Counted from the stretch's first letter, positions 1 through 39,093 are shown. The stretch: DNA of 40,101 nucleotides from a virus (IMGVR_UViG_2718217868_000001:1-40101); one strand, 5' to 3'. Made by a program: numbers and translations. Notes: generated by a model not told the origin, from the sequence alone.

Positions 1-201
1 TTACCCATTGGCGCGGCTTAAGAGCTTATTTTTGAATTCACAATGGTCACGATATAACCATCTTGCTCGCCCGTGGATAACTTTGGCTTTAGGCAGGTCT
101 CCGGACTTAATCCGGTCATAGATGAAGGTTTTACCGAAGCCAGTATCGGCCATGATGAATTTCAAATCAACCAGTGAATCAGGTTGTAGTTCGTGTTGCA
201 T
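1..201 (-). CDS. torI: Excisionase / recombination directionality factor, TorI-like (66 aa)
   Basis: Complete 66-aa ORF, stop codon at 1..3. The sequence matches my recollection of KplE1/CPS-53 TorI, a small winged-helix DNA-binding protein. It is the last gene of the leftward early operon. Confidence 0.75.
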   Translation of the reverse strand: MQHELQPDSLVDLKFIMADTGFGKTFIYDRIKSGDLPKAKVIHGRARWLYRDHCEFKNKLLSRANG

Positions 202-220
202 GAGTGCTATCTCCGAATAT

Positions 221-236
221 GGAATCGAACCTGCAA
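221..236. other. 16-bp segment identical to the T-arm region of the tRNA-Arg gene at 39033..39048
   Basis: Exact match ggaatcgaacctgcaa at both places, read directly from the sequence. The tRNA 3' acceptor end does not follow the copy at 221..236. Confidence 0.6.
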
Positions 237-245
237 ATCAGGCAA

Positions 246-266
246 GAAAAAACCGCATTGATGCGG
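246..266 (-). terminator. Putative intrinsic terminator on the minus strand between the 114-aa gene and torI
   Basis: Minus-strand hairpin ccgca/tgcgg followed by a TTTTTTCTT run. Confidence 0.4.
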
Positions 267-325
267 CAATGGTAGGTCTGGATATCTTGAGAAATGAAAA
301 TGCCACATCGAGTGTGAGACTGTGG

Positions 326-670
326 TTAGTCCTTGCGTAGCTCGCTGATTCTTCTGTAAGTCTCTGGTGCTTTGTTTCCGTGTATCTTCATTTCAGACTT
401 CAACAGAGCAACGAGGGAATCCCATTCGTTGAGGATGCCTTTGAATGCCGGAACGCGCTTTGCAACCTTGTCGAATGAATCCCTGATTTCTGGAATCTGC
501 TCAACAAGTGCAACGCATCGTCGGAAATCGGCTGCATCATGTGGAGCGCCGAAGTGATGACCATAGATATTCTTTTTCAGTCCACATGCGATTGAGGCAA
601 GAGTTGCGCTACTGATACCGACATCGCTAGTCGATTGCCATTTCAAAACCTTCATAGCCAAATCTGACAT
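326..670 (-). CDS. Hypothetical early-left phage protein (114 aa)
   Basis: ORF with a GGAGA ribosome-binding site upstream of the ATG; co-oriented with the early-left operon. No family recognised. Confidence 0.6.
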   Translation of the reverse strand: MSDLAMKVLKWQSTSDVGISSATLASIACGLKKNIYGHHFGAPHDAADFRRCVALVEQIPEIRDSFDKVAKRVPAFKGILNEWDSLVALLKSEMKIHGNKAPETYRRISELRKD

Positions 671-742
671 TTCTTATCTCCATAAAACAAAACCCGCCGT
701 AGCGAGTTCAGATAAAAGAAATCCCCGCGAGTGCGAGGATTG

Positions 743-1027
743 TTATTCAGTGCCGATATTCACCTTTATCGCGTACACCTTTACCGGTTTATCGCCGAAG
801 TGAGGATGTGTGATTGTCTTGATTTCATATCCGTCATACGGGACGTCAATTCTGCGGCTGGAATCGTCGCGCTTCGGATATCCCTTTGTGATAATCAGGC
901 GGTCATACTCCCGGAACATAATTCGCTTATTCCAGTAGTCATTACACAGGCGATACTCTTCCGTTTTCTCGCCCCGCTTCATCTGGTCGAAGTATTCGCC
1001 GTTCACTGCCAGTTGCAGATTAGCCAT
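743..1027 (-). CDS. Hypothetical protein, possibly ASCH/DUF3850-like (94 aa)
   Basis: Contains a GEKTEEYR motif resembling the ASCH-type GxKxxExR signature; its start overlaps the stop of the upstream gene. Confidence 0.5.
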   Translation of the reverse strand: MANLQLAVNGEYFDQMKRGEKTEEYRLCNDYWNKRIMFREYDRLIITKGYPKRDDSSRRIDVPYDGYEIKTITHPHFGDKPVKVYAIKVNIGTE

Positions 1028-1775
1028 TGTCAGCCTCCTGCTGCGGTGCTGCTGGTGCGGCGGCGAGCATTTTCGAGTAGCAATGCACTGTATTCAGCCA
1101 GAACCCAACCACCGATTGTCCAGCACGCAACATATCTTTTGTTGGGTCAATCGGAACAAGTTTCCATCCATTAGGAATTGGTGGGGTATTAACGCTTTCC
1201 TCCTGAAGCGCGGCAGCAGCTCGTTCCAAAAGCTCAGGTGATTTGATCTCTCCTTTTTCTCGAAGATATTTAGCCCTGCCGGTAAGCATGCAAATAAAAT
1301 CATCTGGAGACTTGTAAGTCGTCGTTACAGGCTCGTCACCCTGAAGTATGGCGGCGCGGCAGGCATCACTGCGAACTTCAATCCCCGCCTTATCCAACGC
1401 AAGCAACAAACCTCGTTCGCTGTCTCCGCAGTCGTCCAGTGTGTCATTGAGCACCGAAAGCGCTTTTTCGAAATCTTTATCGTGAATAGCGAGCACCACA
1501 GCCACCGCTGGCTGCGGTAACTGTGGTGCTGTGTAGAGTGGCGTAACACTGATTTCGTATTCGTTAATATCTTCATCGCTGATAGATGCATCAAAGCTTA
1601 AAAAGCCAGGTCTACCGAGACCACGGGCCTGTGCGTCCTGGATGATGTACGCCACAGCCTCAGCTTCGAGCGATGCCAGTGCGATACGCGCCAGCTCCCT
1701 TTCTTCTGACGCGGTTGGCTCAGGACCGTTGCCGAGGAAAATTTCTTGTGCGCGCTTTTTGGTAATTGTGCTCAT
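1020..1775 (-). CDS. Hypothetical early-left phage protein (251 aa)
   Basis: ORF with an AAGGAGAG ribosome-binding site; ATGA overlap with the upstream gene. Confidence 0.6.
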   Translation of the reverse strand: MSTITKKRAQEIFLGNGPEPTASEERELARIALASLEAEAVAYIIQDAQARGLGRPGFLSFDASISDEDINEYEISVTPLYTAPQLPQPAVAVVLAIHDKDFEKALSVLNDTLDDCGDSERGLLLALDKAGIEVRSDACRAAILQGDEPVTTTYKSPDDFICMLTGRAKYLREKGEIKSPELLERAAAALQEESVNTPPIPNGWKLVPIDPTKDMLRAGQSVVGFWLNTVHCYSKMLAAAPAAPQQEADNG

Positions 1776-2647
1776 GATGTCTCTCCTTTACCGGCTGCGG
1801 CGCGGTCTATGCGTTCAATTTCGGCCAGAATAAGTGCGCCAGCTTTCACAAGGTCACGACGCGGCCCAGATTGCTTCCACCAATCAGGAGCCCACGGCCA
1901 ATGCGCTGGCGTTGAGAGGCCTTGATTGTGTGCGTTAATCGCATAGCAAGCTGCAGCATCTGCCAGCTCACTGTTTTGATAGGCGTCGTCATGCTCCGAT
2001 GTCCAACCCTCAACAGCCCTCTGCCGCTGACGTTCTGATATCACATCCAGAAGTGCAGGATTGAACGCCAGCACCTCCAGTTCAGCAATCCGCTTCTCTG
2101 CGGCTTCCAGCTTCTCGCGCATATCGTCAACGTACTCGACCAGAGATCCGCCAGCAGGAATTTCGCATTCCTCGACCAGTTGGAAGTAGATATCAGCTGC
2201 GGCCCGTGTGTTGCTATGCCTAGCGTCGCCCATCTCACCTTCACGAAGAGCATCGCGTTCGGCGGTAAGATTGGCTATTTTGCTGTCTTTGCCTTCCAGC
2301 TCAACGCGCAGCTTCCCTACCGTTAGCGCAATTTCCTCGTTCTCCTGATCGCGGCGTTTTATGTATTGCTGGTTTCTTTCCAGCTCATCCAGCAGTGCCA
2401 GCACGGTAGCTGGACTGGCTGCGGCGATGAATTCAGCATTGGCCTGCTGTTCCATTTGGAAATCTTCATCGAAACCGCTTTCAGGATGCGCTCCTTCAAT
2501 TCTGCAAATGGGAATATATCCAGCAGCCTCGCGATGAATTAGGGCATCATCACCATCAAATCGGCTCTCTCCATATTCGAGCGACCACTCACCACACGTT
2601 GCTTTCTCTGCCTTGGCACGCAGTGCCTGATAGTCAATCTTGCTCAC
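1772..2647 (-). CDS. Ead/Ea22-like early protein (about 291 aa, GTG start)
   Basis: Likely GTG start at 2647 preceded by an AAGGAGG site (the six-frame ORF extends to 2839). N-terminus MSKIDYQALR and a coiled-coil middle are typical of prophage Ead/Ea22-like proteins; C-terminus carries a WPW..WWK motif. Confidence 0.55.
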   Translation of the reverse strand: MSKIDYQALRAKAEKATCGEWSLEYGESRFDGDDALIHREAAGYIPICRIEGAHPESGFDEDFQMEQQANAEFIAAASPATVLALLDELERNQQYIKRRDQENEEIALTVGKLRVELEGKDSKIANLTAERDALREGEMGDARHSNTRAAADIYFQLVEECEIPAGGSLVEYVDDMREKLEAAEKRIAELEVLAFNPALLDVISERQRQRAVEGWTSEHDDAYQNSELADAAACYAINAHNQGLSTPAHWPWAPDWWKQSGPRRDLVKAGALILAEIERIDRAAAGKGETS

Positions 2648-2867
2648 TGTTTGCCTCCTTTGCTCGCTGATTCCACTCTGCTCTAACCTCTGAATAAAAA
2701 ATCGCGCAGTCATTTCCAGGCGCTGCATATTTGCTACCAGATTGAGCGCGACACGTACCGCATCGAACGAAATAGAATCGACCGCCAGAGCCATATTCAG
2801 GGTGATCTGCTTCGCTGGCAACGTGCGCTGCACCGCCACAGAATGGACATGGTAGTAGGTTGCTCAT
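2634..2867 (-). CDS. Lar-family restriction alleviation protein (about 77 aa)
   Basis: N-terminus [12 protein letters not shown] plus a later CGTC motif fits the Lar (Rac prophage) Zn-finger anti-restriction family. Start from ATGA overlap with the upstream gene. Confidence 0.6.
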   Translation of the reverse strand: MSNLLPCPFCGGAAHVASEADHPEYGSGGRFYFVRCGTCRAQSGSKYAAPGNDCAIFYSEVRAEWNQRAKEANSEQD

Positions 2868-3442
2868 GAATGCACTCCCTTGTGAAGCTGTTCCGCACAA
2901 TGCAGCAGGGCGTCAGTCGCCTCTTTCACCGTAACGCAGTCGCCATCGTCCAGCCCGGACACCGACGCGTGCTTAACGAACGCCGCGCAAAGGTCATCAA
3001 ACGCCTTAGCCCGGACTTCAGTCAGGAAAGCATCGGTGGCTGGGGTGTCTGATTGCATAGACTTTGCGCGATAGTCATTCCACCCTCTTGCATACATGGG
3101 ATTAACTTGCACTCCATCTTTTACGCAATATGCCTGCCCTCCACGGTTGATAACCTTGATTTCGTCCATAGCGCCAGACTTCAGCCCCGCATTCTCCGCT
3201 GCCAGTGCCGAAAACTTCTCGTGTGCCAACTTAACAGCCGAATCAGCCTGCTTAATTGACTCAATCGCTTTCTGTTGGTCTTCGGCCAGCGCCAAAATCT
3301 TGGCCTCCGCTTCAGCAAATTTACGCACCAGATATTCAGCGTTTGTTTCGTTAACATTTAAATCTCGTGGGATGCATTTACCTTTCAGAAAACCATCCAT
3401 CTCAATTAGTGACATTTGTTTCATTTCTTCCCACTCCGCCAC
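2864..3442 (-). CDS. Hypothetical early-left phage protein (192 aa; start uncertain)
   Basis: Long ORF in the operon orientation; several in-frame candidate starts (3442, 3424, 3415). Confidence 0.5.
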
Positions 3443-3585
3443 ATCGCATTCAGATATTTGTTTTGATTCACTGATGGAAACGAGTTTCGCTTAAGCAATT
3501 CCTCTCTCGATGGCATTGGCTTTACGCGTTGGCGAATAATCATTTCTGCCGGAAGAATGCCGGGATTGTATGCAAGTCCTCTCAT
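3421..3585 (-). CDS. Hypothetical small protein (54 aa)
   Basis: ATG at 3585 preceded by a GAGGA site; the six-frame ORF 3421..3735 overlaps the upstream gene. Confidence 0.4.
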
Positions 3586-3595
3586 GGTAAATTCC

Positions 3596-3889
3596 TCAGT
3601 CATTACTGATAGCGCCATAGCGTGAGCGGTAATTACGCAGGCGCGGGTCAATTTCAGGGAAGTGGGTATATGTGGCTTTGCGGAATGGTCGGATTGATGT
3701 CTGGTAAATTCGCTCGCGTTCTTCTTTCTCTGCAAGCCATATACAGTGGCGAAATTCCTTTTCCTCTTTCGTTTCCTGCGGTAGCGACATTATCCGGTCG
3801 TAGTTTTTCCTGAATTTATCCAGCACCTCCGATACGGAATTGCCGGAACAGCGGCGTGGGTCATCCGCACCATACAGAGGCGCTGGCAT
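3596..3889 (-). CDS. Hypothetical early-left phage protein (97 aa)
   Basis: ORF with an AAGGA site upstream. Confidence 0.5.
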
Positions 3890-3912
3890 AATTAAATCCT
3901 TATTTTTCTAAA

Positions 3913-4296
3913 TCAGAATGGGATGGAATCGTCGTATACAGGAGTGTTCTGCTGGTTACTACTTTGCTGCTGCGGGCCATTTCCTGAAGCTGCAAATCCA
4001 ATCTTTGCATTCAGTAATTCAAGAGTGATTGATTGACCATTTTGCCCCTGATAAACATCAACCCTGATGTTTTCTCCGGTAATTTCCACAATGCCACCTT
4101 CAACAAGAACACTACGGTAGTAATCCGCTTGCGCTCCCGGCTTGGCAAATACAACGGCGCTGTAGTTTGTCCATTCTTTCTTTTTTGTCTGGCGATCGTA
4201 ATACTGAACGCCAGCACGGATGTTGAATCCGATATTTTCCCCGGTCTGAAACTCTCTTGCGGGCTTGTTTAGTCTTACAGTAATCGAATGTGCCAT
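3913..4296 (-). CDS. Phage single-stranded DNA-binding protein (SSB-like, 127 aa)
   Basis: Acidic C-terminal tail ending DDSIPF, like the SSB DDDIPF tail; lies immediately downstream of erf. Confidence 0.7.
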   Translation of the reverse strand: MAHSITVRLNKPAREFQTGENIGFNIRAGVQYYDRQTKKKEWTNYSAVVFAKPGAQADYYRSVLVEGGIVEITGENIRVDVYQGQNGQSITLELLNAKIGFAASGNGPQQQSSNQQNTPVYDDSIPF

Positions 4297-4901
4297 TAAG
4301 CAGCCGCTCCTTCTAATTCGTCTCGTCTGATGTTGTAAACGTCCTGCGCTTTGTGCTGCTCCGGTGTGCCTTCAAGCATCTTCCACGCTTTGGCGAACGC
4401 CTGTTTAAGCTCTTCTACGGTGTTTTTTTGCATTGCTGCGTCAGTGAATGCTTTTAGAACCTGTTCAGGTGTAGGTGATGGTTTTGATTGCTTTGCTGCT
4501 GCGTTCTGCTGATGTTTATGCTCGTCGGTATCTGCATCTTTCGCATCATCAATGCCGAATAAACCATTGAGGCAATACTTGCGTGCATAAGAGCTTGTAG
4601 CTCCCGTAACTTGTGCAGAATCCATTCCTTTCTTGCTTTCTTCCTCTCGTGCAAGAGCGGTTGCTTTATGGCTGTTTTCGCCATCGGTAATAGTTGCCGT
4701 GGCTTTCACGTAATACCGATCACCAATCAACACAACTTCATCGCTGATTGATAAAAACAGACCATTCAGTAACGGCTTAACGCCTTCAAGAATATCTTCG
4801 CAGCTTCTGTATTTATATTTACCGAATGAGTTGTACTGATTTTTTGGCGCGTTCAGATTCTCCTGAATGGCTGCCAGTCTTGCGTAAAATTCTTTGCTCA
4901 T
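4296..4901 (-). CDS. erf: Erf-family single-strand annealing recombination protein (P22 Erf-like)
   Basis: MSKEFYARLA..NQYNSFGKYKYRSCEDILEGVKPLL closely resembles P22 Erf as I recall it. Start placed at MSKEF (the six-frame ORF extends to 4931). Confidence 0.85.
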   Translation of the reverse strand: MSKEFYARLAAIQENLNAPKNQYNSFGKYKYRSCEDILEGVKPLLNGLFLSISDEVVLIGDRYYVKATATITDGENSHKATALAREEESKKGMDSAQVTGATSSYARKYCLNGLFGIDDAKDADTDEHKHQQNAAAKQSKPSPTPEQVLKAFTDAAMQKNTVEELKQAFAKAWKMLEGTPEQHKAQDVYNIRRDELEGAAA

Positions 4902-4990
4902 ATGTTTGTTCTCAGAATGGACATGGCCCAAGGAAATAACGCTGATTTAATACTTCGGTCTTTGCCGCATTTAAAAAGACGCGAACACCT

Positions 4991-5161
4991 TCACGATCTC
5001 CCTTCTGGCGATACATTAACGCCTGCTGCGTGTACATGCGTCTCTGTAACTTGCTCTCCTTCACTGTGGTTGCAAGTGACATGAATATCTCCTTCGTTAC
5101 CGATTAAATCTTTCATCTGACGAATGAATTCTTCGTCTGACCAGTTATCTGTAAAACTCAT
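4991..5161 (-). CDS. Small early protein at the P22 arf position (56 aa)
   Basis: ATGA overlap with the kil-like stop; located between the kil-like gene and erf. Confidence 0.4.
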   Translation of the reverse strand: MSFTDNWSDEEFIRQMKDLIGNEGDIHVTCNHSEGEQVTETHVHAAGVNVSPEGRS

Positions 5162-5310
5162 TTCCTGCGATACCACGGAAGGTTGATGACTGATTTCATC
5201 GCTTTATTTGCTTCAAGCCACATTTTTGAATCACCAATAAATCTGGCTATTACTGCTTTGTTCTGTGCAGCACGAAGCATCTGGTGATTGATGGCTATTT
5301 CATTGCGCAT
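5158..5310 (-). CDS. kil: Kil-like small protein (50 aa)
   Basis: 50-aa ORF immediately after cIII with an ..FIGDSKM.. motif reminiscent of lambda Kil. It falls below the 60-aa cut-off of the ORF track. Confidence 0.45.
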   Translation of the reverse strand: MRNEIAINHQMLRAAQNKAVIARFIGDSKMWLEANKAMKSVINLPWYRRK

Positions 5311-5426
5311 AATAAGACCTCAACTCTTTTCCATCCGTCACGTAATTTACGGGTGATTCGTTCAAGTAAAGATTCATTTAGTTGGAAGGCACCCATGCGA
5401 GCGCCTCCCGCGATTGCGTAAATCAT
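5295..5426 (-). CDS. cIII: CIII-like protease (FtsH) inhibitor (43 aa)
   Basis: MIYAIAG..SLLERITRKLRDGWKR matches the lambda CIII core (ESLLERITRKLRDGWKR); AAGGAA site upstream. Confidence 0.8.
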   Translation of the reverse strand: MIYAIAGGARMGAFQLNESLLERITRKLRDGWKRVEVLLCAMK

Positions 5427-5450
5427 GGGTGGTTCCTTATGTTGGTTTTA

Positions 5451-6419
5451 TTAGTAGGTTATTTTTGTTGCGAATACTTCGCCTTTTACGATGGCTGTTA
5501 TGATATTTTTAGCAACATCTTCTGATGCACCAACCTTGATAAGGTCAGCAAGTATTTTGTTATTTACTTCTTTCCGGTGAGCTTTATCCTTTGCTCTGCG
5601 CTCTTCTTCGTCCTTGATTCTTTTTTCTTCTGCTATTCTGGCTTGCTCTTTTGCTTCAGCATCGCGACGGATTTGTTCAGCCTCCTCCTGTGCTTTTCTG
5701 CGTTCTGCTTCAATTGCTGCCTGCTTTTCTCTTTCAGCTCGTTCTGCTGCCTCTTTTGCTTCGCGCTGTGCTCGTTGCTCGGCTTCAATGCGTTCACGCT
5801 CTGCACGTTCCGCTGCGGCCTTAGCTTCTGCTTCTCGCCTTGCTGCTGCTTCAATTTCGGCTTTTGCCTTTGCTTCGGCTTCTGCTCTGGCTTTCTCTTC
5901 AGCTTCTCTTTTTAAGCGCTCTTCATGCTCTCGCTTTTCCCGCTCCGCTTTGAGTCTTGCCTCTTCTCTTTGGCGGTCAAATTCGCGATCCATCAAAATC
6001 GCTATTTCATGGTCAGACTCAATTTGCTTTGCGAGAGCTTCAGCTGCTGCCTTAGCTTCTTCTTCGGCTTTAATCCGCGCCTGTTCTTCCTCATAATCAG
6101 TAAGAGGCTGGCGTGCCTTGGCTTTCAGCTCATCAAGGCGATCACGCACTGTTTTGCGGTTGGCATCAATTAGCTTTGGAATTTCCTTCAGTTCAGCAAC
6201 AAGGTCTTTGCCAAGACCATCGAGATATGTTTTCGTCTGCGCAACTTTATACGCCAGAGAAGCGATCTCCTTTCTGCCCTTTGCCGTTGTGATATCAGGC
6301 ACAAAGGACATAACTTCACGTTCAACCTTTTGAAGGATTTCTTCAATCTGGTCGGCAGACTGAAATACAGTCATTGCATTTGCTTTTTCAATAACAACTA
6401 AATCTGTTACTTCACTCAT
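5451..6419 (-). CDS. Charged coiled-coil protein with a TolA-like E/K/A/R-rich central region (about 322 aa)
   Basis: Start placed at ATG 6419 with a GGAGGA site (the six-frame ORF extends to 6473). About 170 residues of AEEKA/REAEA low-complexity helical repeat flanked by ordinary N- and C-terminal segments. Confidence 0.6.
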   Translation of the reverse strand: MSEVTDLVVIEKANAMTVFQSADQIEEILQKVEREVMSFVPDITTAKGRKEIASLAYKVAQTKTYLDGLGKDLVAELKEIPKLIDANRKTVRDRLDELKAKARQPLTDYEEEQARIKAEEEAKAAAEALAKQIESDHEIAILMDREFDRQREEARLKAEREKREHEERLKREAEEKARAEAEAKAKAEIEAAARREAEAKAAAERAERERIEAEQRAQREAKEAAERAEREKQAAIEAERRKAQEEAEQIRRDAEAKEQARIAEEKRIKDEEERRAKDKAHRKEVNNKILADLIKVGASEDVAKNIITAIVKGEVFATKITY

Positions 6420-6431
6420 ATATCCTCCATC

Positions 6432-6458
6432 AAAAAAATCGCCCTCACATTGGAGGGC
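6432..6458 (-). terminator. Putative intrinsic terminator (minus strand) downstream of the AT-rich cassette
   Basis: Hairpin gccctc/gagggc followed by seven T on the minus strand. Confidence 0.5.
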
Positions 6459-6551
6459 AAAGAAGATTTCCAATAATCAGAACAAGTCGGCTCCTGTTTA
6501 GTTACGAGCGACATTGCTCACATAGCAGACTCGCAAATCTGCTATAGGTGC

Positions 6552-6713
6552 TTATTCGCATCGCATGACAACATCAAATTTTTCGAGATTACTTTGTCGC
6601 AACAATCCTTCTTCTACGCGGTCAGCTTTTCTATAATTATCAAATTCGAAATGTTTAATTACTTCTTTCGTTTCTCGCTCTATAACTTCAACAATGTATT
6701 TCTTATTCATCAT
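6552..6713 (-). CDS. Hypothetical small protein (53 aa), last gene of the AT-rich early-left cassette
   Basis: ATGA overlap with the stop of the 98-aa gene; AT-rich; below the ORF-track cut-off. Confidence 0.4.
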   Translation of the reverse strand: MMNKKYIVEVIERETKEVIKHFEFDNYRKADRVEEGLLRQSNLEKFDVVMRCE

Positions 6714-7006
6714 TCTTCCCCAAGAGCTTTTCTGATTGCTGCAAGACCTTTATTAACAGCTCCATACCATTCTGGATATGTTGTCTTTGTTCTATTTTTG
6801 GTTTGCTTAAGTAATAACTGAAGTGCTTCGAGAAGGTCAGGTGCTGCCGCTATTAGATTGGCATCTTCAATGCATTGAACTTCCTCACAGATTGCAATAT
6901 ACGAACGCCAGCCTGCGCCATTTTCAAGTGAGTCTGCCTGGATGATTTTAATCTCATCGCCATCCATCATTATTTCCCACTTACCTTCAGTACCTTTAAA
7001 TTCCAT
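6710..7006 (-). CDS. Hypothetical protein (98 aa), AT-rich early-left cassette
   Basis: ORF with a GAGG site; low GC compared with its surroundings. Confidence 0.55.
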   Translation of the reverse strand: MEFKGTEGKWEIMMDGDEIKIIQADSLENGAGWRSYIAICEEVQCIEDANLIAAAPDLLEALQLLLKQTKNRTKTTYPEWYGAVNKGLAAIRKALGEE

Positions 7007-7052
7007 GTTAGCCTCTGTTGTTTATGCCAAAAATAAAGGCCGACTATGCGTC

Positions 7053-7523
7053 CTAGTAGAATACCCAATTTTCTGTTTCTTGGTTGTGTCCAAAGTTATA
7101 TTCAATATCTGGTGTTGATGTATCAATATTCTTCATCCCATCAACAAGAGTTGATACAACAGCCAAATCTTGTTTGATTCTCATTAAATGGTATTTCTTC
7201 CGGCGCAATAAACTCTCAATGGCAAGTTTCTTCGTTGGGAATGCAAAAGATCTTTCTGCATTTTTTGCTACTTTCTTAATTGCATATCTATTTCTCCTTT
7301 GTTTCCATTCCCGTAACCACTGATTTGGTGCTGGTTTAAAATCAACAATCCAATGCGCAGGAACCAACCATGCATAATGCTCTGTCTGATGAAAAGCTAT
7401 ATATTGAAGTGCGAATATTTTGATTCCATCTTCTTCAACTGTCGCTTGGAATCTCCAGAAAACAGGCATTCCATCATGTTCAGTTTCTGATTCAGGAAAA
7501 GGTACGCTCCATGATTTTGTCAT
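7053..7523 (-). CDS. Hypothetical soluble protein (156 aa), AT-rich early-left cassette
   Basis: ORF with a GAGGTGAG site; no transmembrane segment; no family recognised. Confidence 0.6.
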   Translation of the reverse strand: MTKSWSVPFPESETEHDGMPVFWRFQATVEEDGIKIFALQYIAFHQTEHYAWLVPAHWIVDFKPAPNQWLREWKQRRNRYAIKKVAKNAERSFAFPTKKLAIESLLRRKKYHLMRIKQDLAVVSTLVDGMKNIDTSTPDIEYNFGHNQETENWVFY

Positions 7524-7577
7524 ATCTCACCTCAAATAAGTGGTTTGCTGCGAAAGTAAATACGCTTAAGTTACCTG

Positions 7578-7715
7578 TTATTTATCCCACCAAGTTCCGT
7601 ATCTATCTATCCAGTTACACCAATCATCGACACTCCATTTTGTTGTGTCGCATTTTGGCAACTGGCATGAATATCTACCTTCTTTGTAAAGTCGGCGTTT
7701 GACTTTCTTGAGCAT
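7578..7715 (-). CDS. Hypothetical small Cys/Trp-rich protein (45 aa) immediately downstream of N
   Basis: GAGGTGAG site then ATG at 7715; contains a CQLPKC motif and a C-terminal tryptophan cluster. Confidence 0.4.
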   Translation of the reverse strand: MLKKVKRRLYKEGRYSCQLPKCDTTKWSVDDWCNWIDRYGTWWDK

Positions 7716-7723
7716 GGCTCACC

Positions 7724-8056
7724 TCAATCGTAATAAGCTGGAATTGATTTTCCGCGTTGCTTCTGGCGGCCTGAGCAAGTCACACCCATTTCACAGCGTG
7801 GCTTGCTGTACCATGTGCGCTGATTCTTGCGCTCAATACGTTGCAGGTTGCTTTCAATCTGTTCGTGGTATTCAGCCAGCACCGTAAGGTCTATCGGATT
7901 CAGTGCGCTTTCTACTCGTGATTTCGGTTTGCGATTCAGCGAGAGAATAGGGCGGTTAACTGGTTTTGCGCTTACCCCAACCAACAGGGGATTTGCTGCT
8001 TTCCATTGAGCCTGTTTCTCTGCGCGACGTTCGCGGCGGCGTGTTTGTGCATTCAT
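7724..8056 (-). CDS. N: Antitermination protein N (lambda N-like, about 110 aa)
   Basis: MNAQTRRRERRAEKQAQWKAANPLLVGVSAKPVNRPILSLNRKPKSRVESALNPIDLTVLAEYH.. is near-identical to lambda N including the arginine-rich motif. Start at 8056 (the six-frame ORF extends to 8146). Confidence 0.9.
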   Translation of the reverse strand: MNAQTRRRERRAEKQAQWKAANPLLVGVSAKPVNRPILSLNRKPKSRVESALNPIDLTVLAEYHEQIESNLQRIERKNQRTWYSKPRCEMGVTCSGRQKQRGKSIPAYYD

Positions 8057-8390: not shown

Positions 8391-9044
8391 TTAACTAAAT
8401 GTCTCTTCAGGCCACTGGCTGGCGATAACTTTCCCTACAACGGAACAGCTATCATTGCATGGGATCATTGGATATTGCGGGTTTAGTGGCTGTAGGAACA
8501 CCTGACCGCTATCCCTGATCAGTTTCTTGAAGGTAAACTCGTCACCACCAAGTCTGGCTATGCAGAAATCACCTGGCTCAACAGCCTGCTCAGGGTCAAC
8601 GAGAATTAACATCCCGTCAGGAAAGCTTGGCTTGGATCCTGTTGGCGCGGTCATGGAATTACCTTCAACTTCAAGCCAGAACGCACAATCACTGGCTTTT
8701 TTGGTTGTGCTGACCCATCTCTCCGCATCACCTTTGGTAAAGGTTCTAAGCTCAGGCGAGAACATCCCGGCCTGAACATGAGAAAAAACAGGGTACTCAT
8801 ATTGTTTTTTAACGGGGGCAGATGAGTATTCGCCAACAGGTGAAAATGTACCGTCGTGGTTGAATGAGACGTTATCAATACCAAGGTATTTAAACACCAC
8901 ACCAATCTCGTCAAGAGATGGATGACGAGATCCGCGCAACCAGTGACCAATTCCACCCTGCGTCATACCAAGCTCTTCAGCTAACTTCTCTTGAGTTATG
9001 CCGAGCTCTTTCATTCTGGATCTAGCCAGTTCATACCATTTCAT
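8391..9044 (-). CDS. cI: CI-type prophage repressor with a lambda-like C-terminal S24 autoprotease domain and a heterologous N-terminal HTH domain
   Basis: The C-terminal ~135 aa (..[36 protein letters not shown]..) is nearly identical to lambda cI; the N-terminal ~80 aa is an unrelated XRE-type HTH. Start at 9044 or 9050 (the six-frame ORF extends to 9092). Confidence 0.85.
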
Positions 9045-9106
9045 TTTCATACCCTTATTATTACGCTCTGTACTAAAATCATCCATGCACAAGATGTATT
9101 TTTTGT

Positions 9107-9377: not shown

Positions 9378-9386
9378 GACATTCTA

Positions 9387-9417
9387 GCTCTTACACATCA
9401 CAGCCCTGAAAAAGGGC
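9387..9417 (+). promoter_or_regulatory. nutR (boxA plus boxB)
   Basis: GCTCTTACA followed by GCCCTGAAAAAGGGC, matching lambda nutR; the tR1-like region follows. Confidence 0.85.
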
Positions 9418-29300: not shown

Positions 29301-29309
29301 GGGGTAATC

Positions 29310-30605: not shown

Positions 30606-33091
30606 TGGCTAAAGCATGGAAAGATGTTATCGCCTCTCCACAGTATCAGGCGTTAGCACCAGAACAAAAAGCGCAGGCTCAGGAGCAATACTTCAATGAA
30701 GTCGTGGCCCCGCAAGCCGGAGAAAATGCAGAGCAGGCAAAACAAGCGTTTTACTCTGCTTACCCTAGAGGTCTGCTAGAGAAGGGTAATATTGACATTC
30801 ACAATCGGCCTGTTGTTAAAAACTCTGATGGCAGCATTAGCACTGTGCGGAGCATGTCTACCAATATAGATGGTAGAGAGGTGCTGATTCCTACCGTTAG
30901 TGATGATGGTCGCATTATGTCTGATGATGAAGCTATTGATAACTTCATGAGGACGGGAAAGCATCTTGGTATGTTCGACAATCCTGACGATGCCACTGCA
31001 TATGCGGAGAGTCTGCACAACCAGCAAGCTGATGAATACCTCCCTAGGAAGAATCAAGCTACACAACAGCCTGTACAGCAAAGTACACAGGCAGCGCCTC
31101 AGCAGCAGAAAGAAGAACCATCATTGATGCAACAAGCTGGCGATTGGCTCACAGGTGGTCAAAGTGCAGGGCAAATTGCAGAGCAGGCTGGTCGTGGTCT
31201 GGTAAACATACCATTTGACGTATTGCAGGGTGGCGCAAGTCTGATTAATGCAATCAGCCAGGGGCTTGGTGGCCCCAAGGTTTTGGACGATGTCTATCGT
31301 CCAGTAGATCGACCAACAGACCATTATGCGCAAGCTGGTGAAACAATTGGTGGGTATCTCCTGCCAATTGGCACAGCGGCAAAAGCTGCTGGAGCGCCAG
31401 CAAAGCTCGCTGGAGATATCGGTTCCACAGGAAACATGATTGCAGGTTCTCTTGCTGATGCTGCAAATCAGGAGGGCGACTTTGCACAAAATGCTGCCAT
31501 TAACGGTGGTATCAATATTGGTGCTCAAGGCGTTCTTTCAGGTGTCGGGCGCGTTATTGCGCCAAGGGTTTCACAGGCTCTTGGTGGTGCAGCACTGAAT
31601 TCTGCTAATGATGTTTCCAGGATGGCAAAGTCAGGTGCTGGGCGTCAGTCAATTGCCAGTCAGGCCGCTAATGTGTCCGAAGATGTAGCAAAAGCGGCTG
31701 AGTCTGCTGGAATTGATATAAACGCATTAACACCAGGAATGCGATCTGGAAGTCGTGGAATTGCACAAGCCGAAGGCGCATTGGCATCAACACCAGGAAT
31801 TGTTCAGGACGCCCATCAGGCAGCATTTAACGAAATATCATCAAAGTTAAGTCGAAACCTTGATGAATTTGGGGCCGCATCTGGAACGGCATCAGAAAAA
31901 AGTGCGGCTATAAAACAAAGGATTCTTCAAAATCTTGATCAGATGAAGGATGCCGAGCGCGCGGCATGGGATGACGTGCGGTCAACAATGCCAAATCAAA
32001 AAGCAAGAATGCTAAATGGTAATGCCGTTATTCAGGCAGAGCGATCTGCTGGCATACCGCTTACTCCTGAAATGAAACAGTTTGTTCAGGCAAACAATCA
32101 AGGTGGAGTAACATTTGATGGCATGAAAGCATGGAGAGCGAAATTTGCTGATGCGGAGCAAAAATATAAGCGTAGCGGAGAGGCAAATGCGGCAAGGAGA
32201 GCAGGGGAAATACGCCGGGCAATTACTGATGATATGCGCACAATGGCGGAAAACGGCGGATTTCTTGATGACTGGCAGAAAGCTAATAATCTGTCTAAAG
32301 CTAGGTTATCAGCACAAGAGAGTGCAGAGTCTGTTTTCGGGCGTGATTTGGCAACAGATGCACTGATTACGAATGGAGTAAAATCCCTTCAATCATCGTC
32401 AGCTAAAGGTCTTAATGGTCCTGCAGGGTTCCATTCTATGATCCGCGCGCTGCCAGAATCAGAGCGTGTTCCTGCTATATCATCAATGTTGCAAGATGCT
32501 ATCTCGCATGGTGTACGTGGTGGCAAAGCTGATGCAGCAGGAATTAACCATATCGCAGGGATACTTACCCCACAAAATGTAAAAGCCATTAGCAGATATT
32601 CCTCAGAACTCGGAAGAATTGCTGATGCATATGGCACTCTTGCAAGAGCAGCAGTGAAACCTCAGCAGTATATTGAAAGAACAGGGAGAACTGCCAATGT
32701 ACTACGCGATCTGGATGCCGGTTTATCCAACGTCACATCAACAGTGTTAAATGCAATTGCCAACTCAACATCAGGTGCCATTGTTGGTGGAGCAGGAGGG
32801 GGCATTGCAGGCGCTGCCGCAGGTGCTTTAGTTGGCGCCGGGTTAAAAGGTGCTGTATCTAAAATTGCCACCACGCGTAGCGGCCGATATGCGATAGAGA
32901 AAGCAGTTCAGGAAGCCACCAAAGCAGTAAGAGCTGGCGGAAGTAAAGAAGCATTAGCGGCGGCGGAACGCAGATTTATGGCAAATAAAGCCGCCGTAAA
33001 AGCAATACGTGATGCAGTTGGAAACGAAGAGTTCAATCGCTTAGCGAGGGCTGGCATTGTAGCGTCGCTAAGCGGAATAGCACAGGAGTAA
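30605..33091 (+). CDS. Ejection protein gp16-like (828 aa, longer than P22 gp16)
   Basis: Large Ala/Gly-rich protein in the gp16 position. Confidence 0.75.
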
Positions 33092-33960: not shown

Positions 33961-33986
33961 GACCCACCTTCAGGTGGGTTTTTTGT
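33961..33986 (+). terminator. Intrinsic terminator between the convergent lipoprotein gene and mnt
   Basis: Hairpin cccacc/ggtggg followed by TTTTTT; overlaps the mnt stop codon. Confidence 0.7.
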
Positions 33987-34221
33987 ACAAATCCTTCAGC
34001 GTATCAAACACCATCTTCTTAACAAGCTCTGACTGCTCATCAGCGAGTCGTTCTGCATCGTCGCGATATCCAGTCACAGGCGATGGTTTTGATAGAGCAT
34101 CTTGGACGATTTGTAACAACTCGGAGTTCATTGATCTCCCATTCGCCTCCGCCCTGAATTTTAATTTCTCCCTTACTTCCATAGGCATACGGAAGTTAAA
34201 GTGCGGATCATCTCTAGCCAT
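33970..34221 (-). CDS. mnt: Mnt repressor (P22 immI)
   Basis: 83 aa, MARDDPHFNFRMPMEVREKLKFRAEANGRSMNSELLQIVQDAL.., matches P22 Mnt. Confidence 0.95.
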   Translation of the reverse strand: MARDDPHFNFRMPMEVREKLKFRAEANGRSMNSELLQIVQDALSKPSPVTGYRDDAERLADEQSELVKKMVFDTLKDLYKKPT

Positions 34222-34243
34222 GCCATCACTCCAAGTTAGTGTA

Positions 34244-34295
34244 TTGACATGATAGAAGCACTCTACTATATTCTCAATAGGTCCACGGTGGACCT
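34244..34295. promoter_or_regulatory. Divergent Pant/Pmnt control region with the Arc and Mnt operators
   Basis: -35 TTGACA (34244..34249); Oarc ATGATAGAAGCACTCTACTAT (34249..34269); Omnt AGGTCCACGGTGGACCT (34279..34295), as in P22. Confidence 0.9.
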
Positions 34296-34311
34296 ATATT
34301 GTGAGGTGAAT

Positions 34312-34473
34312 ATGAAAGGAATGAGCAAGATGCCGCAGTTCAATTTGCGGTGGCCTAAAGAAGTATTGGATTTGGTACGCAAGGTGGCGGAAGAGAATGG
34401 TCGGTCTGTTAACTCTGAGATTTATCAGAGAGTAATGGAAAGCTTTAAGAAGGAAGGGCGCATTGGCGCGTAA
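34312..34473 (+). CDS. arc: Arc repressor (P22 immI)
   Basis: 53 aa, MKGMSKMPQFNLRWPKEVLDLVRKVAEENGRSVNSEIYQRVMESFKKEGRIGA, matches P22 Arc; start at 34312 within the six-frame ORF 34249..34473. Confidence 0.95.
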   Translation: MKGMSKMPQFNLRWPKEVLDLVRKVAEENGRSVNSEIYQRVMESFKKEGRIGA

Positions 34474-34541
34474 AGTTGAAGCCCCAACTGCGGGAACAGT
34501 CAGGGCTTCGGTATCAACAAATCGTCTTAGGAAATATTGAC
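34474..34541 (-). ncRNA. Putative sar-like antisense RNA covering the ant ribosome-binding site and start
   Basis: Minus-strand promoter (-35 TTGATA at 34571..34576, 17-bp spacer, -10 TATACT at 34548..34553) and an imperfect hairpin in the arc-ant spacer; P22 has a ~68-nt sar RNA here. Ends are estimates. Confidence 0.45.
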
Positions 34542-35465
34542 ATGAAAAGTATAGCAACAGCAGTATCTACTATCAATGTACCATTCCACGGCGCAGAGCT
34601 TTATGTTGTCAATCACAACGGCGAACCGTATACCCCAATGAAACCTATCGTTGAGGGAATGGGGCTAGACTGGAAATCTCAGCATAAGAAGATTTCTCAA
34701 CGCTTCTCGAAGGGTATGGTGGAAATCACCATACCTTCTGCCGGTGGGGTGCAAGCCATGATTTGTATGGCTTTACGAAAATTGGCAGCTTGGTTGAACA
34801 GCATCAGTCCTAACAAAGTCCGCCCTGAAATCCGCGACAAGGTAATCCAGTATCAGGAAGAGTGTGACGATGTGCTCTATGACTACTGGACTAAAGGCCA
34901 TGTAGTTAACCCACGAAAAGCTAAAAAGGCGTTGCCGGGTAAAATCACCACTGAACAGCAGGAAGCCATTAAACAACTCGTCATGAGTCGCGGTCAGTCT
35001 CTGCCAAAGGAAAAACAGGCTAAGGCGATGATCACCATGTGGTCGTCACTGAAATCCCATTTTGGATGTTCGTACAAAGAAATCAGTGAGGAGCAGTTTA
35101 CCGAAGCACTGTCACTTGCAGCTCGAGTTCCACTTGAAGGCGAGTTCATTGGCAAACAAGAGAAGAAAGCAAACGAGCTTTCTGCAAAAGAAGCAAACAG
35201 CCTTGTATGGCTATGGGATTATGCTAACCGTTCACAGGCATTATTCCGCGAACTGTATCCGGCATTAAAACAAATTCAATCGAACTATTCCGGCAGATGC
35301 TACGACTACGGTCATGAATTCTCGTATGTTATCGGAATGGCGAGAGACGTTTTAATCAATCACACACGAGATGTTGATATTAATGAGCCAGACGGACCAA
35401 CGAATCTTTCCGCATGGATGAGACTTAAGAATAAAGAATTACCTCCTTCAGTACATAACTACTGA
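34542..35465 (+). CDS. ant: Antirepressor Ant
   Basis: AGGAAA site; position after arc as in P22; 307 aa; start at 34542 within the six-frame ORF 34476..35465. Confidence 0.75.
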   Translation: MKSIATAVSTINVPFHGAELYVVNHNGEPYTPMKPIVEGMGLDWKSQHKKISQRFSKGMVEITIPSAGGVQAMICMALRKLAAWLNSISPNKVRPEIRDKVIQYQEECDDVLYDYWTKGHVVNPRKAKKALPGKITTEQQEAIKQLVMSRGQSLPKEKQAKAMITMWSSLKSHFGCSYKEISEEQFTEALSLAARVPLEGEFIGKQEKKANELSAKEANSLVWLWDYANRSQALFRELYPALKQIQSNYSGRCYDYGHEFSYVIGMARDVLINHTRDVDINEPDGPTNLSAWMRLKNKELPPSVHNY

Positions 35466-35508: not shown

Positions 35509-35565
35509 TGCCCAAAATTCACCGTGGCAATGCTGCGGCGATTCCTTGTATCTGGAGCAAATTAA

Positions 35566-37413
35566 ATGACAGACATTACAGCCAATGTGATTGTATCGAT
35601 GCCTTCGCAACTCTTCACTATGGCGCGTTCTTTTAAAGCCGTAGCCAATGGCAAAATTTATATCGGTAAAATTGACACTGACCCGGTAAATCCTGAAAAC
35701 CAGATTCAGGTTTATGTAGAGAACGAAGACGGATCTCACATTCCTGTTTCGCAACCAATCATTATCAATTCTGCTGGTTACCCTGTATATAACGGACAGA
35801 TTGCCAAATTCGTAACTGTGCAAGGCCATTCTATGGCTGTTTATGATGCGTATGGTGCACAGCAGTTCTATTTTCCGAATGTGCTGAAGTATGATCCTGA
35901 TCAGCTTGAAAAAAGGTTATCAAGCCCATCCGAAGGAATGGGAGATTCTCTAATTGCTGTTAAACAACCTTTTCCGAGAGCGGTTCCACAGACTCAACAT
36001 TTGTTTAATGCAATGACCTTTTCTGTTTTCAGTTGGGGAGCTAAAGCTGATGGCGTCAATGATGACACAACAGCAATTAAAAACTGTCTTCAAGACCTAA
36101 AGAGTTCATATCCATCTGGATGTAATGTATTTCTTCCAGCAGGAGAGTATAGAATTAGTGAAACTATTATTATCCCTGATAGAATTAATTTGTTCGGATG
36201 TGGAAACGGAACTCATATACGGCCAATAGGAGATATTTTAAGTAATAGTAATGCTTATATTATATGTTTTGATTATGGCCCTACAACAGCAGGTGCATTT
36301 ATTCGTGACATAACCATTACTGGAAACGATATAGTGAAGGGGATAGGAACTACCTTAAAAAAAAGCGATACAGTAATAAGGCAAGTTTACGCTCTTAATT
36401 TTGACTGCGTCACGGTACAAAATTGTTCAATAGGTTTTGAAATGCAAGGCTGGTGGCACAGCTCAATGACAAACTGCCGAGCTAGTGGGTGTAATATTGG
36501 TCTTAGATTGCTTGGTCAGTGTGTTAGTATACATATATCAGGATGTAAATTCACAGGAAAGGGGTTGTCTCAACCATCGTCTATAGGAATAGATATTGCA
36601 CCAGAAACTTACTCATGGTCTGGTGGTGAAGTGATAAGCGAGGGGATAATTATTGATGGTGAGACAATGTGTATCTCAAATAACGTTGGGATATGGGTAA
36701 AAGGTAGCCTTTATATGCATCTTTCGAATGTCGATATTGATTTCGTAGGGTCAACTGGGATAATTCTTGAAAATAACAATTCTGTTTTTTCTGTAAGAGA
36801 TTGCTGGATTGCCGCACAAGGTGACAGCATTAATCAGTTTGTTGGAATAGACTTTAGATCTCAGACGCCTTCAGTTCTTCGTAATATAGAAGGAGTGGAA
36901 ATTAGGTGTGAAAACAATAACCCTATCAATAACAATATAGGTATATCTTTAAACAATGTCAGTAATGTTAATGTTTTGGGAGTAAATATAATTGGTGGTG
37001 ATAAATCAATTTATTCAAAAACATCAAGAAATATTAATATCAATGGATGTATGTTTGCTAGTGATTTGTTGTTTGATGATATTGACGGTCTCTCATTGAA
37101 CGGTAATTACATAACATCACTTACCTTATTAAACTCACCAAAAGATAGAAACAATAACTTTGGGGTTAATAACAATAAATTAACTAGAGGAAAGGTAACT
37201 GTACCTATGTCACCCGGAGCTACATCAGGAACTGCAGACATCCCAAACCCAATTTCTGGCGTCATATATTCTGCCAGCGTAATTCCAACTGATGCTGCAA
37301 ACTCAATGGACACTGTTTCAGTTTCAGGAACAACAATAACAATATCAAGACCAACACCTGTTGGTGTTTCCTTACCAACACTTGTTGAATACTATTTAAT
37401 ATCATCATTATAA
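35566..37413 (+). CDS. Tailspike protein: P22 gp9-like N-terminal head-binding domain fused to a different beta-helix receptor-binding domain
   Basis: N-terminal ~115 aa [58 protein letters not shown].. matches the P22 tailspike head-binding domain; the rest is an unrelated pectate-lyase-like region (..[25 protein letters not shown]..). Confidence 0.9.
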
Positions 37414-37442
37414 TCAGCCTGCCAATATTTTATTACACAATC

Positions 37443-37478
37443 AAAAGGCTTTCCTTGCCGACGAAGAAAAGCCTTTTG
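37443..37478. terminator. Bidirectional hairpin between the convergent tailspike and integrase genes
   Basis: About 10-bp stem aaaaggcttt/aaagcctttt with T-rich flanks on both strands. Confidence 0.5.
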
Positions 37479-37699
37479 TAGTATAATTTATGATTTCATA
37501 CGTTTATGGTGGGTTAATGTTTTTTTATCAACCAAGGAAGTTACATCACAAGAAATAAAAATATCTATTAAAAGATACTTTTCATGATAACGATGATATT
37601 TAAATTGAATGAATTATGTTTTGTGAGAAAAAACTGAGACACACAAAGCTTTGCACTGGATTGCAAGGCTTTGCGCTATTCGATAAGGGTTAAGGTGGG

Positions 37700-38893
37700 T
37701 CACTCCACCTTTTCATCAAGCCAGTCCGCCCACCACTGCATCATTTCTCTGCGCTTGTCGAGATACTGAGCATGGTTGTAAATCCCGCGCACAGATCCGC
37801 CGTTGGCATGTGCAAGTTGCACTTCAATAGCATCAGCAGGCCATTCGTGCTCGTTCATAATCGTGCTGAATTCATGCCTGAATCCGTGACCGCTTTCCAG
37901 ACCCTCATAGCCGATTTGTTTGATCACAAGCAATACCGCGTTCTCGCAGATTGGCTTCTTCTTATCGTTGCGCCCGGCAAAAACAAACTCTGATACTGGT
38001 TTAGTGATGGAGCTTAGCGTAGTGAGAAGTTCAACTACCTGGTCCGACATCGGAACCACATGAATTTTGCGTCCCTTCATCACACTGGCGTCGATGGTGA
38101 TAATCCTGTTTTCAAAATCGACGTTCTTCCATAGCATGGAACGAAGCTCTTTTGTTCTGAGGGCTGTGTAGCGTAAAGCTTTGGTCGCAATGAGCGATAC
38201 GATACTTCCTGAAAATGTTGCCAGTGCTTTGTTGAATGCCGGGATCTGGTCTGCAGGAAGAAACGGGAAGTTCTTCTTGCGGTATCCCTTCATGGCGTCA
38301 GCAAGGTCAGGTGCCGGGTTATATTTAGCCCTTCCGGTGACAATAGCGTAACGGAAAACCTCTCCGCATCTTCTGCGGGCTTTGTTGGCTCGCTCAATTG
38401 CACCGCGATCTTCAAATCTGCGGATTACTTCCAGCAGTTGCATCGGCTCAATATCCTGAATTTCAAGGCTGCCGATGATAGGTAAAATGTCGTCATCAAA
38501 CATTTTGGCAAGTTCAGTTGCATAGCCTACTGACCAGACTTGCTTCTTGTGCTCGTACCATTCCTTGTAAATGGCACTAAAGGAATTGTTGTTAGACGAA
38601 GCCTTTTTCGCTTTTACCGGATCGATGCCAACCGAGATGTCTTTCCTCGCGGTCCATGCTTTATCCCTTGCCTCCTGCAAAGTCATAAGCGGATATTTTC
38701 CGACGGTCAGGATTTTCTCCTTACCGTCAATCTTGTAGCGAAGCTGCCATACCTTTTTCCCTGATACAGGGACATAAAGGTACAGGCCATTACCATCGAG
38801 TAGGCGGTATGGTTTTTCTTTCGGCTTTGCTGCTTCAATCTGCTTAACGGTGAGCATGGGTAAAAATCCGGTGGGTAAAATTATTTTATCCAC
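37700..38893 (-). CDS. intS: Tyrosine integrase (KplE1/CPS-53 IntS-type)
   Basis: 397 aa; C-terminal catalytic motifs HGFRHEF and ..VRGIYNHAQY; adjacent to and transcribed away from the tRNA-Arg gene. Confidence 0.9.
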   Translation of the reverse strand: MDKIILPTGFLPMLTVKQIEAAKPKEKPYRLLDGNGLYLYVPVSGKKVWQLRYKIDGKEKILTVGKYPLMTLQEARDKAWTARKDISVGIDPVKAKKASSNNNSFSAIYKEWYEHKKQVWSVGYATELAKMFDDDILPIIGSLEIQDIEPMQLLEVIRRFEDRGAIERANKARRRCGEVFRYAIVTGRAKYNPAPDLADAMKGYRKKNFPFLPADQIPAFNKALATFSGSIVSLIATKALRYTALRTKELRSMLWKNVDFENRIITIDASVMKGRKIHVVPMSDQVVELLTTLSSITKPVSEFVFAGRNDKKKPICENAVLLVIKQIGYEGLESGHGFRHEFSTIMNEHEWPADAIEVQLAHANGGSVRGIYNHAQYLDKRREMMQWWADWLDEKVE

Positions 38894-39032
38894 TTTTTAC
38901 CCGTCATGGAGTGCGGCTGTCAACGATCTGACGCGAACCATTACGAACTGTGAATCTACGGAAGGCTTGATATTCAGGGGATTTTGCGGACTGGTACGGA
39001 TGAGAGCGAACTGATAAATGGTGTCCCCTGCA
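38894..39032. promoter_or_regulatory. Prophage-host junction (att region with probable integrase promoter and arm sites) overlapping the tRNA 3' end
   Basis: Position between int and the tRNA; exact core and crossover are not determinable from one junction. Confidence 0.5.
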
Positions 39033-39093
39033 GGAATCGAACCTGCAATTAGCCCTTAGGAGGGGCTCGTTATATCCATTTAACTAAGAGGAC
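39019..39093 (-). tRNA. argW: tRNA-Arg (anticodon CCU), argW-type
   Basis: 75-nt minus-strand sequence GTCCTCTTAGTTAAATGGATATAACGAGCCCCTCCTAAGGGCTAATTGCAGGTTCGATTCCTGCAGGGGACACCA with a cloverleaf and CCU anticodon. Confidence 0.9.

Follow-up and report, generated by a model that had tools for sequence, protein, structure and literature searches.

The prophage at argW and its two junctions

The stretch of DNA considered here, IMGVR_UViG_2718217868_000001:1-40101 (40,101 nucleotides (nt) in full, hereafter the window), is a 100% match to the chromosome of Escherichia coli strain H6 (NZ_CP010170.1, 1600890-1640990), and the sister strain H5 carries the same sequence. To judge by its sequence, the window very probably holds nearly all of a temperate, P22-like prophage of about 39.1 kb (Lederbergvirus, HK620/Sf6-type), which is inserted into the 3' end of the transfer RNA (tRNA) gene argW and carries a recombination module of the KplE1 type. 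The analysis covered the window plus 8 kb to its left and 1.5 kb to its right, a locus of 49.6 kb (L001) in which the window position equals the L001 position minus 8000. In its left part, the host genes dsdA, dsdX and dsdC are followed by torI on the minus strand, by a leftward early-left string that extends up to N, and by a CI-type repressor gene with an S24 domain. The middle is formed by rightward cro/cII, replication, nin, Q and lysis genes, the P22-type virion block and the mnt/arc/ant immI region, and the right part by the tailspike gene (plus strand), intS and argW (both minus strand) and the host genes yfdC and mlaA. The prophage has a length of 39,106 bp from core to core and lies between the host genes dsdC and yfdC, and the annotation of the H6 locus contains no pseudogene or insertion sequence (IS) element inside it. 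The features of its two ends are the following, in window coordinates.

1..201, minus strand: torI, recombination directionality factor (RDF, excisionase) and TorR inhibitor, last gene on the early-left side (RefSeq torI)
221..236, no strand assigned: GGAATCGAACCTGCAA, 16 nt, exact copy of argW T-arm bases 39033-39048, 19 nt upstream of the torI ATG
252..267, minus strand: terminator-like hairpin with T-run between torI and the adjacent early-left gene (scan match GCCGCATCAATGCGGT plus TTTTTC)
37442..37478, no strand assigned: bidirectional terminator-like hairpin between the 3' ends of the tailspike and intS genes
37700..38857, minus strand: intS, tyrosine integrase of the P4/DUF4102 type (Pfam, IntS identity)
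38858..39017, minus strand: attL arm in KplE1 nomenclature, with PintS and five TorI pentamers (motif definitions from PMC2951348)
39018..39033, no strand assigned: att core ATGGTGTCCCCTGCAG, 16 nt, overlapping the argW 3' end, direct repeat with L001 7912-7927
39019..39093, minus strand: argW, tRNA-Arg(CCU), the bacterial attachment target (ARAGORN, RefSeq)
39169..40101, minus strand: yfdC, host flanking gene outside the prophage (Pfam Form_Nir_trans, RefSeq yfdC)

The att core is the reverse complement of the published KplE1 core CTGCAGGGGACACCAT (PMC2951348), and exact copies of it are found at L001 7912-7927 and 47018-47033, two in the 49.6-kb locus where 0.02 would be expected by chance. 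The left copy resides in the spacer between dsdC and torI, just outside the window, with 73 nt between the core and the torI stop codon at window base 1. On its other side dsdC ends at L001 7817 and the core starts at 7912, with 94 nt and no other gene between them. The attR arm, counted as 89 nt that reach from the core up to the stop codon of torI, is identical to that of KplE1 in E. coli K-12, and the junction alignments are near-identical both to attL and attR of K-12 and to attP of HK620 and Sf6.

The two products expected from excision can be recognised in other genomes. The predicted attB, in which the dsdC flank is joined to the argW flank at the core (query of 800 nt), is contiguous at 99.9% identity in 911 of 5426 complete E. 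coli genomes when at least 80% of the query is required in one place; with the same requirement, a 2.7-kb query covering intS, argW and yfdC is found in 1685 of the 5426. The predicted attP brings the intS side and the torI side together at the core; with the order intS - core - torI, this sequence is present without interruption in 15 phage records at 96.6-98.5%. These records include HK620, Sf6, IME10, HZ41, HK633, N7, HF4s, CurroJimenez, Dewey and Louie, and in HK620 and Sf6 the attP core is annotated in GenBank at the same spot.

The reconstructed attP (window 38900-39033 joined to L001 7928-8010) also contains a 46-codon open reading frame (ORF) on the torI/intS strand, equivalent to HK620 hkaB and Sf6 gene 17, which spans the core and is split by integration.

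A tandem or composite arrangement at argW, in which torI would be part of a KplE1-like remnant and the P22-like phage would have inserted separately, could appeal to the region between argW and dsdC, which the Kapi1 paper describes as a hypervariable island, and to the second tRNA-like 16-mer at 221-236. The left junction argues against it, as the whole locus contains no more than two copies of the core and dsdC directly adjoins the left one. The same join of torI, core and intS is moreover contiguous in free phage genomes, and the 16-mer belongs to the module in the virion DNA of HK620 and Sf6. Such a composite is therefore given next to no credence. An earlier note on this DNA, made from the window alone, had stated that only one junction lies in the window and had named a leftward extension as the check and a tandem left junction as the finding that would speak against it; the extension led to a second junction beside dsdC that is single and clean. 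Its further statements hold as well, namely that the integrase adjoins the tRNA gene, reads away from it and is convergent with the tailspike gene (35566..37413, plus strand), that integrase and excisionase genes lie at opposite ends of the prophage, and that attP lies between them in the KplE1-type and not the lambda-type manner. The comparison with the argW region of K-12 that it proposed gave the same core, an identical TorI, an identical attR arm and an attL that differs at five positions.

IntS, TorI and the control of excision

The product of intS comprises 385 residues, of which 382 (99%) are identical in IntS of K-12 and 378 (98%) in Int of HK620, both in gap-free alignments. It contains the Pfam domains Arm-DNA-bind_3, Phage_int_M and Phage_integrase, i.e. 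the arm-binding, central and catalytic parts, and in the alignment the region of the HxxR, H and Y motifs is the same as in K-12. The start codon is placed at the ATG at 38857 because this position is conserved with IntS of K-12 and HK620; the GTG at 38893 given by a mechanical ORF list is too long by 12 codons and extends into the promoter region (38858-38893). The 3' end of argW faces intS, so that the tRNA gene comes first and the co-oriented integrase gene reads away from it. In the attL arm, the -10 element of PintS, a promoter defined by experiment in KplE1, is located at 38894-38899 and the -35 element at 38918-38923, while the TorI pentamers are found at 38924, 38934, 38944, 38987 and 39007 as reverse complements of GATCG, GTTCG and GTCCG. 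The 243 nt from 38858 to 39100, which include the attL arm, the core and argW, differ from KplE1 of K-12 at five positions, all of them in the arm, and these spare the -35, the -10, the five pentamers and the core. At the level of sequence, the arrangement is the one known from KplE1, with the intS promoter inside attL and in the company of conserved TorI pentamers.

The identity of the gene at the other end rests on a sequence match to a protein of known structure, since the only Pfam match of its product, HTH_17, stays below threshold. ORF 1..201 is complete, with its stop codon in window bases 1-3, and its 66-residue product is identical at 66 of 66 positions to TorI in PDB 1z4h, the KplE1 excisionase (E 6.6e-43). 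The possibility raised by the earlier note that this ORF might not be an RDF can thus be set aside, as its product is TorI itself. TorI first came to notice because it inhibits the response regulator of the Tor system, and genetics and biochemistry have established it as the RDF for KplE1 and HK620 substrates (PMC2951348, PMC3509656); the RDFs of HK620 and Sf6 are described in the literature as 100% identical to it.

This dual role allows a different view, in which the layout is of the lambda type, another excisionase sits beside the integrase and torI is a mere host-regulatory passenger. The first description of TorI as a Tor inhibitor and its sub-threshold Pfam match would fit this view. On the other hand, TorI is a proven RDF for the substrates named above, P22 with its genuine lambda-type order looks different, and the two spacers that flank intS, the 286 nt towards the tailspike gene and the 161 nt towards argW, contain no annotated gene. 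A passenger role for torI is accordingly regarded as very improbable. An int-xis operon of the lambda/P22 type is not what is found here: in the prophage, about 39 kb separate the RDF gene from intS, and in attP the two lie on opposite sides of the core. What is found instead are the features of the KplE1/HK620 type, namely an RDF orthologous to TorI, an integrase orthologous to IntS, a duplicated core CTGCAGGGGACACCAT at the 3' end of argW, and the two genes at opposite ends.

The 286-nt spacer itself (37414-37699) is AT-rich and without an O-antigen-modifying gene. It contains the bidirectional hairpin at 37442-37478, for which fold energies of -15.5 (plus strand) and -19.8 kcal/mol (minus strand) were calculated with z-scores of -4.0 and -5.7, and in HK620 a terminator is likewise annotated downstream of int. 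At or near the corresponding position, Sf6 carries oac, P22 gtrABC and KplE1 of K-12 yfdGHI, in contrast to the non-coding stretch of the H6 prophage.

Since the attL motifs, the core and the attR arm are conserved with respect to K-12, the mechanism worked out for KplE1 and HK620 should apply by analogy, with IntS kept low through self-repression and TorI, not an int-xis transcript, deciding on excision. In the circular phage, the early-left genes, torI, the attP core and intS would follow one another on one strand, and IntS as a tyrosine recombinase would exchange strands in the 16-nt core common to attP and the 3' end of argW. Integration would split the module, leaving intS beside argW with its own promoter in attL and moving torI some 39 kb away to a position beside dsdC. 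If KplE1 is a guide, intS expression would then be kept low by binding of IntS and TorI over PintS, and TorI bound to the five pentamers of attL would steer IntS towards recombination of attL with attR and hence towards excision. Both TorI-dependent excision and repression of intS by IntS and TorI have been shown with KplE1 and HK620 substrates (PMC2951348, PMC3509656), and transcription of int and of the RDF gene is uncoupled in HK620-type phages (PMC2951348).

The region upstream of torI

The earlier note had described torI as the terminal gene of an early-left operon, of which orientation and position stand: torI lies on the same strand as the early-left string that starts at N and is the last gene in it. 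Membership of one operon is a matter of inferred co-transcription, with a terminator-like hairpin in between. The hairpin from 267 to 252 has a fold energy of -8.2 kcal/mol (z -2.3), and the terminator scan gave two further terminator-like hairpins upstream of torI, at 741-720 and 709-690. Two points weigh against the overall reading here: the early-left genes are separated from torI by such a hairpin, and the torI promoter has been called uncharacterised (PMC2951348). Together they leave the mode of TorI induction an inferred one. The most economical model would be that cleavage of the repressor releases N-antiterminated leftward transcription from PL, which would read through the hairpin so that TorI is made. 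The literature searched contained no relevant paper on Rho or termination control of torI, and a scan with the sigma-70 consensus detected no promoter-like site upstream of torI.

Similarity to HK620 and Sf6 stops at hairpin 252..267. As phage-phage similarity breaks exactly there, the putative terminator is the apparent mosaic boundary of the conserved recombination module. Among viral contigs (L006-L125), the hairpin at window 245-270 occurs in two alternative versions, CCGCCATCAGGCGG and CCGCATTGATGCGG, and on the torI-sense strand each of them can form a stem with a T-run behind it.

Between this hairpin and torI lies the 16-mer GGAATCGAACCTGCAA, which prolongs the tRNA sequence exactly from where the att core stops; the window contains it twice, where 0.03 occurrences would be expected. 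It is also conserved in K-12, HK620 and Sf6. In the GenBank record of HK620 a putative cII-dependent 'phage integration' promoter and a cII site are annotated at the 16-mer, a promoter that remains unsupported by the simple sigma-70 scan because that scan was empty; in the Sf6 record the stretch from torI to the 16-mer is labelled as mosaic 'boundary sequence'. The 16-mer contains GTTCG, a pentamer of the TorI type, and it lies within the putative torI promoter. Deleting the 293 bp between core and 16-mer, i.e. the attR arm and torI, would restore a contiguous 31-nt 3' end of argW. A block of identity from the T-arm to the 3' end of a tRNA gene is typical of P4-family integrases.

Two explanations of the 16-mer were tried and rejected. 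As a true second junction, it would place torI outside the prophage; its flanks are unlike a tRNA 3' end, it is present in the virion DNA of HK620 and Sf6, and the core lies beyond torI. A torI-less 'ancestral' junction should appear as the contiguous core, 16-mer and phage sequence CCCCTGCAGGAATCGAACCTGCAAATCAGG, which has no match among the viral contigs of IMG/VR; torI is found on the left, at an identity of at least 96%, in all 120 IMG/VR contigs that hold the 22-mer. The diverged Klebsiella module of phage vB_Kpn_Chronis has the same order of int, core and RDF without the 16-mer and is uninformative on its origin. That the 16-mer is no accident, and reflects either an RDF cassette inserted or recombined into an ancestral attP or an operator for control of torI by TorI or IntS, is a tentative proposal to which only a low probability is attached. 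In the literature searched, no description of a copy of the 16-mer upstream of torI was found. It is the sole possibly new point of this analysis and could bear on the origin of the module or on the regulation of torI.

Relatives and completeness of the prophage

The closest relatives of the module are found in HK620 (AF335538) and Sf6 (AF547987), which share with the H6 prophage the succession of int, attP core and hkaC/gene 18 (i.e. TorI) at 96-98.5% DNA identity as well as the P22-type virion order in genomes of 38-39 kb. Their early and immunity regions and the distal part of their tailspikes, on the other hand, are other mosaic pieces, and Sf6 has oac between the tailspike and int genes where the H6 prophage has 286 non-coding nt. 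KplE1 (CPS-53) of K-12 has the argW site, the 16-nt core, the flanks yfdC and dsdC, an identical TorI and an IntS of 99% identity in common with the H6 prophage. In contrast to it, KplE1 is reduced to a remnant of 10.2 kb that lacks both repressor and virion genes and has the gtr-like yfdGHI beside intS. Kapi1 (MT813197) and CUS-3 (CP000711), again temperate and P22-like, occupy argW in the interval from yfdC to dsdC. Their int gene lies on the yfdC side and xis/TorI on the dsdC side, and attP falls between these two genes, just as in the H6 prophage. Their accessory genes differ, and the Kapi1 paper gives the duplication as 17 bp, longer by one A at the 5' end than the 16-nt repeat described here.

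P22 and lambda resemble the H6 prophage in having a tyrosine integrase and a small RDF, and P22 also has the same virion and immI architecture. The order in P22, however, is xis-int-attP with overlapping xis and int, which places both genes at one end of the prophage as in lambda. In P22 and lambda alike, xis and int are transcribed together from PL; the integration site of P22 is thrW. Because P22 itself has this order, both layouts of int and RDF occur within the genus Lederbergvirus. The Klebsiella phage Chronis (MN013086) has int, core and RDF (L005 2600-3140) in the order of the H6 prophage, with a DNA identity of about 77-80%, and it encodes a protein clearly homologous to TorI. It differs in a slightly different core (GTGTCCCCTGCA), in the missing 16-mer and in an upstream gene that overlaps the RDF start. 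This type of module therefore reaches beyond phages of E. coli and Shigella.

The novelty implied by the earlier note, a KplE1-type module attached to a P22-like virion set, does not hold, as this combination has been published for HK620, Sf6, CUS-3 and Kapi1 (PMC2951348; PMC3509656; bioRxiv 10.1101/2021.11.03.467220) and is the usual context of the module. The split layout of int and RDF, the autoregulation of the integrase and the control of excision by the RDF have been known for more than 10 years for KplE1 and HK620 (Panis 2007, 2010, 2012). Correct as it is, the observation is not new: the layout has been described, and studied by experiment, for KplE1, HK620, Sf6, CUS-3 and Kapi1. The H6 prophage represents one more intact-looking member of a common, well-studied group at a known hotspot and adds little to it; its practical value lies in annotation, i.e. 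in the exact ends of the prophage, the corrected start of intS and the design of junction polymerase chain reactions for H6.

The genes between the two ends are arranged as follows.

326..8056, minus strand: early-left string with N (7724-8056), cIII, kil, ERF recombinase (4296-4901), anti-RecBCD and ea/ead genes (RefSeq; Pfam N36 and ERF)
8391..9086, minus strand: CI-type repressor with HTH_3 and Peptidase_S24 (LexA-like, self-cleaving; Pfam), annotated as LexA family protein
9162..17536, plus strand: early-right to lysis genes, i.e. cro-like, cII, O-like, DnaB-like helicase, nin, Q (15122-15745), holin, lysozyme and Rz (RefSeq; Pfam Phage_rep_O, DnaB_C and Antiterm)
18750..33091, plus strand: P22-type virion module with gp3, gp2, gp1, gp8, gp5, gp4, gp10, gp26, gp14, gp7, gp20 and a protein in the gp16 position
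33970..35465, no strand assigned: immI-like region with Mnt/Arc-family repressors and Ant antirepressor (Pfam Arc, P22_AR_N/C; RefSeq)
35566..37413, plus strand: tailspike with a P22-type Head_binding domain (residues 1-113), Pect-lyase-like and Tailspike_C domains (Pfam), convergent with intS

The early-left string shows mosaic similarity to mEp213, HK544, HK97 and HK022, and the early region is pieced together from segments that also occur in mEp213, HK544, HK97 and CUS-3. In the virion module, the small (gp3) and large (gp2) terminase subunits, portal (gp1), scaffold (gp8), coat (gp5), needle (gp26) and the remaining proteins follow one another collinearly from gp3 to gp16 in the order listed, with the tailspike in addition, as in a P22-like set. 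With the exception of the protein in the gp16 position, they match GP3_package, Terminase_6N/6C, P22_portal, Phage-scaffold, P22_CoatProtein, P22_Tail-4, Phage_stabilise, Phage_tail_NK, DUF2824, P22_gp7 and Inj_translocase of Pfam from end to end, and the knob of the needle is of the Sf6 type. The order of the immI-like region is that of mnt-arc-ant-gene 9 in P22. At the DNA level, the late region is 94-97% identical to the P22-like coliphages CurroJimenez, Dewey, Louie and IME10, with at most 71% of it covered by any one record.

The prophage could nevertheless be cryptic like KplE1, with a working recombination module and a complete appearance but without infectious particles. Three observations already listed for the H6 element are at odds with this: the P22-type structural genes agree with their Pfam profiles over the full length; the prophage has genes for the repressor, N, Q, replication and lysis and no annotated pseudogene or IS; and the length of 39.1 kb is comparable to that of Sf6 (39,043 bp) and HK620 (38,297 bp). 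In its favour, prophages commonly hold inactivating point mutations that are invisible at the level of ORFs, and several of the early genes, like the distal part of the tailspike, are mosaic pieces of a unique kind. To the two points raised above against the overall reading, three are added here. The 828-residue protein in the gp16 position (30605-33091), annotated as DNA transfer protein, has no Pfam match, and this lack of a family match also speaks for a defect. The receptor-binding part of the tailspike is without close DNA matches among the top phage matches, and the exact mosaic was found in two sister genomes only, those of H5 and H6. The protein in the gp16 position is longer than its P22 counterpart. 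On balance, a defective prophage is considered rather unlikely. The protein in the gp16 position without Pfam match and the distal tailspike without close matches mean that viability cannot be asserted from sequence alone. The virion and regulatory gene sets are full-length and the virion proteins, with the exception of the ORF in the gp16 position, match Pfam essentially end to end, so that 'apparently intact', the wording of the earlier note, seems a fair description. The H6 element is, by all appearances, an ordinary, apparently complete P22-like prophage with the genes for IntS and TorI at opposite ends.

For the phages that best match the late region, similarity ends soon after the head-binding domain of the tailspike (window about 35970-37413; query end 17205-17270), and the receptor-binding part may be of an uncommon type. 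In the early-left string, the hypothetical ORF 5451-6419 (minus strand) contains imperfect direct repeats of about 27-37 nt (5621-6065) that are GCTTC-rich on the plus strand; the mEp213 record PV340538.1 has a 'TolA' feature somewhere within its 17-kb early-region match, which might correspond to this ORF. ORF 25146-25406, in the interval between the coat gene and gene 4, holds a hexanucleotide tandem repeat (CAGAGC/GAGCCA, 25291-25336) that encodes (EP)8. Outside the prophage, about 4-7 kb to the left of the window, the host gene emrY is interrupted in strain H6 by ISKpn26, an element of the IS5 family (L001 1135-3873).

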